Assembly: GCA_000004695.1 (NCBI GenBank)
Contig: CM000151.3
Coordinates: 4,352,001 to 4,416,000, forward strand
Origin: Dictyostelium discoideum
Taxonomy: Eukaryota
Direction of reading: 5' to 3'
DNA: 64,000 nt
The position numbers were made by a program, and so were the translations under genes. The notes beneath the pieces are model-generated. The model was not told the origin of the DNA and ran no database searches. It saw only the letters and a program-made list of their open reading frames with translations. Below are positions 27,150 to 44,675 of the stretch, piece by piece (position 1 is the stretch's first letter; the number at the start of each line of letters is the position of its first letter).

Positions 27150-30891
<3,742 letters not shown>

Positions 30892-32212: not shown

Positions 32213-33523
<1,311 letters not shown>

Positions 33524-34405: not shown

Positions 34406-35070
34406 AGGTGATAGAGGTGCATGGGAAACAGGTGTTGTTATGGGTATAATGAATGTAAGACAACCAGAAGATTATCGATGGCAATTTGTAACAGGTATTT
34501 CAGCAGGTTCAATTAATGCAGCAGCAATGGCAATGTTTAGTGTTGGTGATGAAACAAGTGCACGTGACTTTTTACAAAATCAATGGTTAACTTTAACAAG
34601 AGAGAATGTTTATGTAAATTGGGCAGGTGGTCCACTCGATGGAATTTTATTCCAAACTGGTTTATTTGATACAACACCATTAATTCATTTATTAAATAAT
34701 TTAATTAATACTACTAAATTAGCAAATTCTGATAGAGGATTTTTAATTGGTGCTTCAAATATTGGTACTGGTGTCTTTGATAGATTTTATAAAAATGATC
34801 CAAATATTACATTGGGTGTAGTTGCATCTTCATCTGTTCCTGGTGTTTTCCCAATGATTGAAAAAGATGGTCAATTTTATTGTGATGGTGGTTTAACAGT
34901 TAGTATTAATTATTAATTTAAAAAATAATCTACAAATTATTTAATTAAACTAACTTTAAAAATTTTTTTTTTTTTTTTAATTTGTCATTTATATAGTATG
35001 ATACTCCGTATGTATAAAATTGATAAAATCTAACAACTAGTGTGTTAAAAAGAACACAAATAATATTAAC

Positions 35071-35838: not shown

Positions 35839-37865
35839 TTAAATTTGTTTTTTATCATAACAAACATGATCCCATAATGAGAAATGGTTCTTTGGACCAA
35901 CAGTACCATCAAGATTTTGGAATTCATGTACAAAGTAAACAGAGAATTTATATAATTGTTCATCACCAGTATGTCTTTTATTGAATTCTCTACAGAGATA
36001 TCTACCATGTTCTAATCTCATAGAATCACTATTTGCTTGATTATAACCATTTTCATAATATTTAAACCATCTATGATTACCATAAGACTTGTAGAATGGA
36101 TTTGGTTTTTCAAAGTTTACTTCAGTATTAATTTGAAAATTAAACATACCTTCATTTTTAAATAATTCAACTTTAGTACCATCATCTAATTCACCATGAA
36201 TAACATGCCACCAATGTGTTTTTGGTGGTGCTGGACTAAACATATTCCAACTTTGATCTATTATTAAATAAATTTAAATAAAATTAATAAATAAAATAAA
36301 ATAAAATAAAATAAAATAAATAAAATAATGAATAAAATTAAATTAAATAATTACCTAATCTTAAAACATAAGCAAATTGATGCCAACTTTGTTGGAAACC
36401 AAAATTATAATCAAAAACATTCAAATTATAAGCAAATAAGAAATAACAAATGAATAACATCCAAATGTTATTTAAAATTGAATAAATACGTGGAGTTTGT
36501 GGAATTGGATTCTTTTTCTTTTGATATAAACTTCTTTTACCACTAGACATAATTAATGATTGTTGTGAACGACTATGAATCTTTTGACAAATCTTTGTAA
36601 ATAACATACACATATTTGCAGGTACATATGTCAATGCCTTTGCCAATGGGAATAGTAAAGGTGATTTACTACAAATGTAATTTAAAGCATGGATATTTCT
36701 TTTTCTAATTCCATTTGAATCAATTGTAACTAACCAATCATCACCAACTAAATCTTTTTTACTACCATTAATTAATGGGGAAGAAGAAAACATTGTTGAT
36801 GAAATTGTTGGTGATGATAAATTTGAAGTACGACGACGATGTGATCTTTCAGCGTCATCAGTATCTGAACCAGAGTTATCATTTGATGATGATGATGATG
36901 AACTACTGCTGCTTAATAAATATGGTGATTGAGTAGCACTATTATTGCTAATTGAATCTTCATTATTTAACATTTTTTCTAATGGTGAAAAAATAGCATG
37001 ACCTGGAATTATGAAATAAGTTTTAAAGATTAAAGCAATTCTTTGACTAATTGGACTTGAAGTATTATAATAAACACGAGTTGGTTGTTGACCTTTTAAT
37101 ACTTTCTCCTCTATCAAATCAAAGAATAATTCCCAAACTGTTGTTGGAATATTAATTAATTCTGCACCTGCTGTAACGAAAAAGAATAAACCTAAACGTA
37201 AACACATAATAAAACCAGCATGCATAGCAATAAATCCAATTGCACCAAATAATCTACACCAATCTGAATAAACTGGTGAAATTAAAAATAAAATACCAAA
37301 TAATTCCCATTTTGCAACTGCAATTGTTAAAACTCTATAATAATAATAATAATAATAAAAAAAGTTAATATGTTATTATTTTTATTATTGTTGTTATTGT
37401 TGTTAATTTATAATAAATTAAAATATTTACTTTAATGCTGGAGGGAAATATAAAAATAATTTAGCGATATCAGTAGCGAAATAATCTAAAGTTAAAGCAT
37501 AGAAAGTTGCATCACCATTATGCCATTCTGCACCAGATTTATGAAAATATGAAGTACAATACATTAAACCAATTTGTAAGATAATTGCACAAGTACCGAA
37601 TGAAACGAAACGATAACTATCTGGATCTCTTTTTGCTTGGATAACTTTTTGTTCAATACCACGTTCACTACCAATCTCAATACCAATTTCATCTTTATTA
37701 ATATTAATATCTTTTAATTGTTGTTGTTGTGGTGGTTGTAAAATTAATTCTTGGTCATGTTGTAATTGTTGTTGTAATAGTTGTTGTTGTTGTAATGGTG
37801 ATTCTGGTTCTGATAAATTAATTATTGGTATATTCGTACTATTTATTACATTATTTATTATTACA

Positions 37866-37896
<31 letters not shown>

Positions 37897-38473
37897 TTAC
37901 AATATTATTATTATTATTATTATTTAAACGTTTTATTGGTGAATCTTGATAAAATGTTGCACTATCCCAAGAGAAATATTTTGAAGTTGGTATGAAAATA
38001 TTTAAAAATAACATCATACGAAAGAAAACATCACCACCATGACCAATGACACCAATGTAGGCTTGCAATGAAATTGTCATTAACCAAGTTAGAATAGAGC
38101 TTAGTTTTGTACGATAACCAATTAACATTGAAAATGCAATTACAATATGTAATGTGAATAGAAATGCTTGGAAACAAAATGATGTATTAACTAAATGAAT
38201 TGGTAAAAAGTAATTACTACTATAACGTGATGTAATTAAATGACGAGGCATAACACCACTATCTGTATACATTACACTTAAATCCGTTGCACGTTCAATA
38301 ACATCACCAATTACACATAATGCCATCGTAACTCTAAACAATGCCATTGATCTATAATCCATACCAAACATCATCAATGTTTTATGTTGAACCTTTTTCC
38401 ATGTCTCTTTTGATATAAAATTATGAAATGATTCTGTAAAACTTTGTGGTCTTTTTAATTTTAATTTACCCAT
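35839..38473 (-). CDS. HTTM-domain protein resembling vitamin K-dependent gamma-glutamyl carboxylase, about 813 aa in 3 exons
   Basis: Exons at 38473..37431, 37334..36355 and 36257..35839. SMALFRVTMALCVIGDVIERATDL matches VKGC [50 protein letters not shown] matches VKGC [35 protein letters not shown] matches HWLFSPF. In the C-terminal exon, HWWHVIHGELDDGTKVELF matches VKGC HVKITYRDGRTGELGYL. Multiple predicted transmembrane helices; an N-rich insert in exon 1. Confidence 0.65.
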
Positions 38474-39450: not shown

Positions 39451-40827
<1,377 letters not shown>

Positions 40828-41137
40828 ATTATATAATATAAAATAGTGTATATAGAAAAAAAAAAAAAAAAAAAAAAAAAAATAAAAAATAAAATAAAAT
40901 TGAAAAATTGGGAATTGGAAAAAAAAAAAAATAAAAAAAAAAAATAAAAAATAAAAAATTTTTTTTACAACATACAAAAACCTTTCTTTCTTTCTTTCTT
41001 TTTTTTTTTTTATTTTATTTTATTTATTAAACTTTATTTAACTGTTTTGCCAACCTTTCATTATTTTGTAATGAACTTATTCTTTTTCTTTCTTTAACAA
41101 AATAAATTGAAAAAACAAATACTACTAAAACTACAAC

Positions 41138-43990: not shown

Positions 43991-44675
43991 TTAATCAATT
44001 TTCTTTGATTTAATATTAGTATTACTATTAGAATTTTTTGGTGTATAAGATTTAACAAAGAATTTAGAGAATAAGAAAAGGAAAGAAAAGTTAATTGAAT
44101 AGGCAGCAGCAAAAGCAGGATAATGAGTGAAACAACCAATAGTATTAATAGTATAAACATGAAGTACACCAGCGATACCAAGACAAACGAATTGAAGGAT
44201 TTGAATCATTGTAATATATTTTTTCCACCAAACTGTTTTACCTCTACCAGTTTGGAAATAGAAATAGTACATGAATACATGAACGAATGTATTTAAAAAC
44301 ACAACCCATAATTGGAAATTCCAACCACTGTATAAAAAAGAACCAACATAACCAAACGACAATACAATGATGATAGACGTGTAAGAAAATCAATGGTTTC
44401 TTTTTCAATACTATAATAACTGTATCTAAAAGTTCATAAAATTTACTAATATAAAATATATAGGACCAATAATAGGTTACACCTTTATCAAATCCACCGT
44501 TTGGATCTTCACAAACTGTGAATAATGGTCCTTCATTTGAAACTCTTTTAATAATTTCATATAAAACACCAACACACATAATTAATGACCAAATACATAA
44601 AATTGCATTATGTAAAATTGAAATGAATTTTAAAGAAAATGGTTTTCTATTTTTCATTAAAAACTAAATAATTAA

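Follow-up and report, generated by a model that had tools for sequence, protein, structure and literature searches.

The window analysed here is a 64,000-nucleotide stretch of Dictyostelium discoideum DNA (assembly GCA_000004695.1, contig CM000151.3, positions 4,352,001 to 4,416,000 of the forward strand), and the gene under study, located at 35839..38473 on its minus strand, encodes an 813-residue membrane protein which belongs to a family that combines an HTTM core, the type of core found in GGCX, the vitamin K-dependent gamma-carboxylase, with a DCC1-like thioredoxin-fold domain. Three open segments (exons 38473..37431, 37334..36355 and 36257..35839, stop codon included) are joined through two introns (37430..37335 and 36354..36258; 96 and 97 nt, both canonical GT..AG) to give a 2442-nt coding sequence. 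The spliced translation is in frame and, with the exception of one residue, identical to an 813-residue D. discoideum "hypothetical protein" at NCBI, which settles both gene model and organism and bears out the three-exon gene proposed by a first-pass annotation made from the DNA sequence alone. The single difference is Pro344, specified by the codon CCT at 37442-37444, where Arg stands in the NCBI protein and in each of the other 17 dictyostelid homologues; as Pro is the commonest residue at this position in the wider family (96 of 145 aligned members), the substitution probably reflects either a CGT/CCT polymorphism between strains, without harmful effect, or a discrepancy in sequencing. An origin by contamination or by recent transfer was rejected in view of the AT-rich, host-like composition, the two typical Dictyostelium introns, the Asn/Gln tracts and the presence of orthologues in several other Amoebozoa, the window as a whole being AT-rich (15-30 % GC) with Asn/Gln tracts. 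It is therefore a real nuclear gene of Dictyostelium and a conserved one, orthologues of which already carry the UniRef label "HTTM-like domain-containing protein".

Family membership was established through profile searches seeded with the dictyostelid sequences. When the full protein, five pieces of it, an insert-deleted version and the 18 dictyostelid members were each scanned directly against Pfam, HTTM/VKG_Carbox (PF05090) was not matched at E <= 10, nor were the VKGC lumenal domain PF22777, DCC1-like or DUF5819, the sole matches being spurious and due to low-complexity sequence (Methyltrans_RNA, PFF1_TM), so that the direct Pfam check of the HTTM/VKG_Carbox assignment made by the first-pass annotation returned no match at all. 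An NCBIfam scan of the window protein yielded nothing relevant and reached no HTTM model, while a word-indexed homologue search recovered dictyostelids only, including additional paralogues in D. purpureum and Tieghemostelium. A HMMER search of 1.84 billion cluster representatives with a dictyostelid profile retrieved 7,032 clusters at E <= 1e-3 and 2,363 at E <= 1e-30, the best E-value outside the dictyostelids being 1e-168 and three blocks being common to the members. The nearest source-named members beyond the dictyostelids are from other Amoebozoa (Filamoeba, Vermistella, Phalansterium, Arcella and Cavostelium), and the family is mostly prokaryotic, with many members in Cyanobacteria and others in candidate phyla radiation (CPR) bacteria, DPANN archaea, Acidobacteriota, Proteobacteria and further groups; when one genome was taken per species, at least 558 prokaryotic species loci matched over almost the whole length. 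The database names of these prokaryotic relatives are domain-based only ("HTTM domain-containing protein", "DCC1-like thiol-disulfide oxidoreductase family protein" and "predicted DCC family thiol-disulfide oxidoreductase YuxK").

Several relatives score above the Pfam gathering cut-off for HTTM and/or DCC1-like, the DCC1-like match lying directly after the HTTM core, and PF05090 is matched above cut-off by relatives retrieved at E <= 1e-80. An alignment of 145 sequences, which served for the deep family profile and for the conservation counts out of 145, displays conserved motifs along its whole length and the architecture of an HTTM core followed by a DCC1-like thioredoxin-fold domain, a transmembrane (TM) helix and a conserved C-terminal domain. 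The window protein is a member of this family, which is large, ancient, mostly prokaryotic and also present in several Amoebozoa. The prokaryotic fusions of about 600 residues (PF05090 + PF04134) are colinear with it over the full length at 28-33 % identity and share its C-terminal DQxWxMFxPxP and RW.KY motifs and Cys pair, whereas the Dictyostelium protein differs from them in its two long low-complexity inserts, its introns and its position beyond direct Pfam reach. Among the dictyostelids, members are 45-90 % identical, with about 150 invariant columns that include all core catalytic positions. The family is expanded in some dictyostelids: T. lacteum has three paralogues on one contig (DLAC_00987-00989) and at least five in the species, D. 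purpureum and Acytostelium have two each, and one was found for D. discoideum. Full-length members also occur in metagenome-assembled genomes of genome-reduced lineages, namely DPANN archaea (loci L008 and L011) and Saccharibacteria (L009, L032 and L043). Many CPR and DPANN lineages are not known to synthesise quinones, and the gene would not be expected in them if its product depends, as presumed, on a quinone of the respiratory type.

The HTTM core is encoded in two blocks (coordinates of this and all further features of the gene refer to the minus strand). The first block, residues 38-175 (37949..38362), contains the FR...GD..ER helix and the GGD...R loop (G147, D148 and R152), is aligned by hhalign to GGCX residues 59-191, and is covered in >=93 % of relatives, with D148 conserved in 145 of 145, R47 in 139 and D57 in 141. 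The second block, residues 282-426 (37100..37630), crosses intron 1, is aligned to GGCX residues 192-310 and harbours K312 (codon 37538-37540), W317, E358, H386 and F398. The core is split by an Asn/Gln-rich low-complexity insertion, residues 176-281 (37631..37948), which is predicted to be disordered (pLDDT < 50 for residues 175-281) and is without conservation even between dictyostelids; in the AlphaFold2 (AF2) model of the full protein the mean pLDDT is 63, with values of 70-89 in the ordered parts and disorder at residues 175-281 and 473-543. When the 145-sequence profile was aligned by hhalign to human GGCX (PDB chain 13ib_A, of identical sequence), a probability of 96 % and an E-value of 3.6e-9 were obtained over 242 columns, pairing residues 38-409 with GGCX 59-310, and alignment to a 24-sequence vertebrate GGCX profile gave a probability of 87 % (E 4e-6). 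Moreover, hmmsearch of the PDB with the deep profile retrieved GGCX at E 0.003, and in a Foldseek search of the PDB with the AF2 model the top 16 matches were all GGCX (probability 1.00, 406-446 columns, 10-12 % identity). On the strength of these deep-profile alignments and Foldseek matches, the membrane core is an HTTM core and the protein a member of the HTTM superfamily. The motifs on which the first-pass annotation had relied are present, i.e. MALFRVTMALCVIGDVIER at residues 43-61, the Lys/Trp motif at 311-323, KWELF at 356-360 and, in exon 3, HVIHGELDDGTKVELF at 692-707, and its identification of an HTTM-superfamily protein with a conserved Lys/Trp catalytic motif in an amoebozoan genome is upheld by the deep profile and by the conservation of these two residues. 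Similarity to GGCX ends at about residue 409, however, and with only about 250 core residues homologous, PF22777 absent and the Glu-binding residues not conserved, the full-length gamma-carboxylase homologue suggested by the same annotation is not what the gene encodes.

In GGCX, according to a structure paper of 2025, Lys218 is the general base that activates vitamin K hydroquinone, with Trp223 stacking on it, Asp263 acting as the adjacent acid and Phe299 stacking on CO2, while the substrate Glu is bound by Asn159, His160 and Tyr395, and substrate and propeptide are held by Arg436 and the lumenal domain (PMC12647623). These residues were mapped through the hhalign and hmmsearch alignments. 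Lys218 corresponds to K312, which is conserved in all 145 family members, Trp223 to W317 (143/145), Asp263 to E358 (130 Glu and 14 Gln), Phe299 to F398 (143/145) and His287 to H386 (119 His and 23 Gln). The Glu-binding residues are not conserved: hhalign places Asn159 and His160 at Ala138 and Tyr139, beside an 8-residue indel and where the family consensus is R-N, and Tyr395 falls in an unalignable region, its by-eye counterpart being Leu674. As judged from these alignments, the family retains that half of the GGCX active site which activates the quinol, but not the half which binds Glu. The region in which Asn159 and His160 lie in GGCX is occupied in the family by a loop of its own, without GGCX counterpart, with the signature S-L-Q-x-R-N...G-G-D-x-x-x-R, represented in the window protein by H-G-G-D-V-F-F-R at residues 145-152 (about 38018-38041). 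Asp148 of this loop is invariant (145/145), being as conserved as the catalytic Lys, and is a candidate for a family-specific substrate-binding or catalytic residue.

The segment that separates the core from the last TM helix, residues 428-612 (36542..37096), was found to be a degenerate DCC1-like (thioredoxin-fold) domain, which the first-pass annotation had overlooked and which occupies the place of a short loop (residues ~313-360) in GGCX. A dictyostelid-only hidden Markov model (HMM) of this region (residues 428-470 plus 544-612), scored with the database size set to 1.84e9, lands with 25-38 bits on Pfam-verified DCC1-like segments of four relatives (P0116, P0089, P0092 and P0049), and in P0116 it covers residues 306-400, the Pfam DCC1-like match there being 308-408. 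With all matches aligned to the profile, many relatives have (I/V)YYDGxCGFCKK...NSWIV.D..G..H...SP where the Dictyostelium protein has RVYYNTSSPISQ...DDWLVTIDSNGIRKRN...SKSP; the first part of the former corresponds to the DCC family's DxxCxxC signature, and seven such relatives were confirmed to contain Pfam DCC1-like. In the AF2 model the domain adopts a thioredoxin-like beta-alpha-beta-alpha...beta-beta-alpha arrangement, and a Ser-rich disordered insert of about 70 residues (473-543) lies within it. The CxxC motif of the DCC family, which the prokaryotic fusions mostly keep, is replaced in the Dictyostelium protein by S441-P-I-S444 within N438-T-S-S441-P-I-S444 (codons 37055-37057 for S441 and 37046-37048 for S444), and both positions are Ser in 18 of 18 dictyostelids; 60 other relatives, those of the amoebozoans Filamoeba and Phalansterium among them, keep the two cysteines, and ten others have Ser at both. 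Since both cysteines are lost throughout the dictyostelids, their DCC1-like domain is predicted to be redox-dead.

The DCC1-like domain is followed by the last TM helix, residues 630-654 (36416..36490), which coincides with a hydropathy peak at 631-652 and is helical in both AF2 models, and by a conserved soluble C-terminal domain, residues 655-813 (35842..36415), which crosses intron 2 and is marked by the motifs DQSWNMFSPAPP, HRWFKY and RYLCREFN and by the Cys pair C763/C807. These approximately 160 residues are among the best-conserved parts of the family (Q676 in 144 of 145, W678 in 142, F681 in 142, W738 in 139, C763 in 141 and C807 in 138). By eye the domain resembles the start of the GGCX lumenal region (SWNMF against SWDMM, HVIHGELDDGTKVEL against HVKITYRDGRTGEL, HRWFK against RRWK and RYLCR against YATCL), yet hhalign comparison of the two was not significant (E 0.53 and 0.068) and fell in registers other than that of the by-eye match, and GGCX was missing from the 50 Foldseek matches of a model of the C-terminal fragment (pLDDT 90), so the likeness of the C-terminal exon to VKGC that had been noted from the sequence is not significant. 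The most frequent weak Pfam match was to DUF5819 (PF19136), obtained for 3 of 34 family fragments with a best E-value of 0.049 and not for the window protein; a relationship of the C-terminal domain to DUF5819 is plausible. In a 2026 preprint, a bacterial protein of the HTTM + DCC1-like type is described together with the TM + DUF5819 protein next to it; the predicted complex of the two resembles whole GGCX and MloH, and menaquinol was modelled in it beside the conserved Lys, Trp and Phe of the pair (10.64898/2026.08.19.745780). The split pair of Melghirimyces thermohalophilus from that work has the same parts in the same order as the Dictyostelium protein, but in two polypeptides, whereas the Dictyostelium protein carries all of them in one chain and its relation to DUF5819 is only hinted at.

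The retention of the GGCX-equivalent Lys, Trp, acid and Phe points to a catalytically competent, quinol- and O2-dependent enzyme, and we consider the chances to be about even that the window protein is such an active enzyme and acts on another substrate than GGCX does. In this model, the HTTM core would use K312, W317, E358 and F398 as GGCX does for activation of vitamin K hydroquinone, so that from quinol and O2 a strong base would be generated at the membrane interface, which would deprotonate, and possibly carboxylate, a substrate. A Glu protein with a propeptide tag, such as GGCX modifies, would not be that substrate, since neither the residues that bind Glu nor the lumenal domain that binds the propeptide are present; where GGCX has these, the family has an invariant GGD...R loop and a C-terminal domain of its own. 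The dictyostelid DCC1-like domain would have a structural or scaffolding role only, as both of its redox cysteines have been lost (SPxS). By analogy with the topology of GGCX, the DCC1-like domain would be cytosolic and the Cys-pair domain lumenal. We infer, in other words, the quinol dependence, the catalysis, the membrane side of the domains and the class of substrate.

A number of observations weigh against this model of an active quinol-dependent enzyme. The Foldseek TM-scores are low (0.22-0.33) at an identity of about 11 %, the window protein and its 17 dictyostelid relatives reach no Pfam or NCBIfam HTTM model directly, and four conserved pocket residues do not prove the use of quinol. 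The link to GGCX is remote and depends on the deep profile, since GGCX was found among the PDB sequences neither by phmmer nor by a dictyostelid-only profile, and since hhalign of the shallow 18-sequence dictyostelid profile against human GGCX aligned the first helix only, with a probability of 1 %. In addition, a chaperone role is ascribed to LMF1, which is also an HTTM protein (PMC11526315). The genomic context of the prokaryotic homologues is ambiguous in this respect. In 25 of 80 prokaryotic loci, from cyanobacteria, a gene for a Pyr_redox_2 flavoprotein is located directly upstream of the homologue, and in 23-31 of the 80, all of them cyanobacterial or unclassified (e.g. L013, L015, L034 and L045), it is part of a co-oriented string of genes specifying an acyl-CoA dehydrogenase, a carrier protein (PP-binding), an MBOAT protein, an unannotated protein of 313 residues and the flavoprotein, with the HTTM-DCC gene last. 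Because the Pyr_redox_2 family includes quinone reductases, this neighbour would fit with reduced quinone being supplied locally, but as it is confined to cyanobacteria and reached no specific NCBIfam cut-off, including that of NDH-2, it is a weak hint. The string as a whole may represent an uncharacterised acylation or modification pathway, and is a lineage-restricted hint that would fit both quinone chemistry and a substrate other than a protein. Downstream of the cyanobacterial HTTM-DCC gene, a DUF1574-like protein of 406 residues and a family-2 glycosyltransferase are often encoded. Literature searches on vitamin K or VKOR in Dictyostelium turned up nothing of use.

That the gene specifies a true GGCX orthologue, i.e. 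a gamma-carboxylase, is extremely improbable. The homology of the core, the conserved equivalents of K218, W223, D263 and F299 and the by-eye matches after the last TM helix speak for it, and the two proteins have in common an HTTM core with general-base Lys, stacking Trp, adjacent acid and CO2-pocket Phe, followed by a TM helix and a soluble C-terminal domain. Identity is nevertheless about 11 %, and PF22777, the lumenal, propeptide-binding domain carried by every true GGCX listed, is absent, as are the Glu-binding residues (Ala138 and Tyr139 in an indel region for Asn159 and His160, and Leu674 by eye for Tyr395). The family, unlike GGCX, possesses its own invariant GGD...R loop, an inserted DCC1-like domain and a C-terminal domain without significant similarity to GGCX in sequence or structure, and its closest relatives (E to 1e-168) are HTTM + DCC1-like fusions, a non-GGCX HTTM clade, while GGCX is reached at E 0.003 by the deep profile only. 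Judged by what the first-pass annotation itself had named as refuting it, the orthologue reading fails, both on the direct Pfam profile and on the clade of the closest relatives. The gene should thus not be annotated or reported as a gamma-carboxylase; an HTTM protein with a different chemistry, which the first-pass annotation had offered as its second option, was the better half of that reading. Loss of function following descent from a bacterial gene, leaving a decaying or neofunctionalised relic in the dictyostelids, is also very improbable, though a little less so. Both DCC cysteines are indeed lost in 18 of 18 dictyostelids and two disordered inserts are present, but the strong purifying conservation among these species, the several paralogues retained in some of them, the intact frame and the canonical introns are at odds with decay.

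LMF1, LMF2 and the Bacillus subtilis protein SdpB are, like the window protein, membrane proteins of the HTTM superfamily. Membership of the LMF group was rejected on profile scores, there being no match to Pfam LMF1 (PF06762) in the window protein or in any relative scanned, and membership of SdpB (TIGR04033) was rejected as the window protein gave no match and its relatives scored <=53 bits against a cut-off of 178. An LMF-like function, that is, a non-catalytic or redox-homeostasis factor of the endoplasmic reticulum (ER) which would act, like LMF1/2, as a chaperone for secreted disulfide-bonded proteins, is unlikely. It would accord with the thioredoxin-fold domain and the Cys-pair C-terminal domain of the family, and with the published description of LMF1 as an HTTM-type ER membrane protein tied to ER redox homeostasis with oxidoreductase partners (PMC11526315). 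The invariant Lys (145/145) and the Trp, Glu and Phe in GGCX catalytic positions, however, argue for retained chemistry, and loss of the thioredoxin-fold cysteines in dictyostelids removes the obvious thiol-redox route. Somewhat less unlikely, and overlapping with the model of a quinol-dependent enzyme, is an HTTM enzyme that acts on a small molecule or lipid, either in the manner of MloH or in conjunction with an acylation pathway of the carrier-protein/MBOAT type. In MloH, of the Streptomyces malonomycin pathway, an HTTM region is reported to be joined to one that is DUF5819-like, and the enzyme adds a carboxyl group to an aspartyl residue of a polyketide-peptide intermediate (10.64898/2026.08.19.745780; PMC12647623), which shows that HTTM enzymes can act on non-Gla substrates; MloH was set beside the window protein by description only, and no DCC1-like domain is reported for it in either of these two sources. 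The cyanobacterial string with its acyl-CoA dehydrogenase, carrier protein, MBOAT and Pyr_redox_2 genes would agree with such a role, although it is restricted to cyanobacterial or unclassified loci and may be no more than lineage-specific synteny, and no such context exists in the eukaryote, where the neighbouring genes in the window are unrelated.

The HTTM label of the orthologues in UniRef is already known, as is the bacterial architecture, which is held in databases and described in the preprint (10.64898/2026.08.19.745780), whereas the placement of the amoebozoan proteins in that fused family, their residue-by-residue correspondence to the active site of GGCX and the DCC1-like domain without cysteines appear to be new. 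HTTM enzymes couple quinol oxidation to the formation of a base strong enough to deprotonate carbon, and the only ones with known substrates, to our knowledge, are GGCX and one bacterial natural-product enzyme. The present analysis extends a larger HTTM + DCC1-like branch, catalogued but functionally blank, into eukaryotes with its catalytic residues intact. Its dictyostelid members also constitute a natural experiment in which a thioredoxin-like domain was kept and its cysteines were lost, so that a structural role becomes separable from a redox role. We know of no Gla proteins in Amoebozoa. It is tentatively proposed, as a possibility we hold to be rather doubtful, that Amoebozoa keep in their secretory membranes an active quinol/O2-driven base-generating enzyme of the "vitamin K type" and of bacterial ancestry, which would perform an undescribed modification (carboxylation or another C-H activation) of a protein, lipid or metabolite and which, in dictyostelids, would be independent of the thiol-redox input of the bacterial DCC domain. 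As knockouts and point mutants are routine in Dictyostelium, an active amoebozoan quinol/O2 enzyme would make this organism well suited to genetic work on the function of a family that counts more than 7,000 clusters.

The neighbouring genes in the 64-kb window bear no relation to the HTTM + DCC1-like gene. The adjacent one, at 39454-40977 on the minus strand, encodes a RecA of bacterial type (Pfam RecA, E 3e-24) that contains a long stretch of Asn and is presumably the organellar RecA. A mitochondrial carrier with a poly-Asn N-terminus of about 110 residues (32213-33520) and a fragment of a patatin-like phospholipase (34440-34913) are specified by the plus strand. An ELO fatty-acid elongase is encoded at 43991-44657 on the minus strand in split open reading frames (ORFs), an intron being probable, and a polo-like kinase at 27999-30891, also on the minus strand, has its kinase domain and POLO box in separate ORFs.

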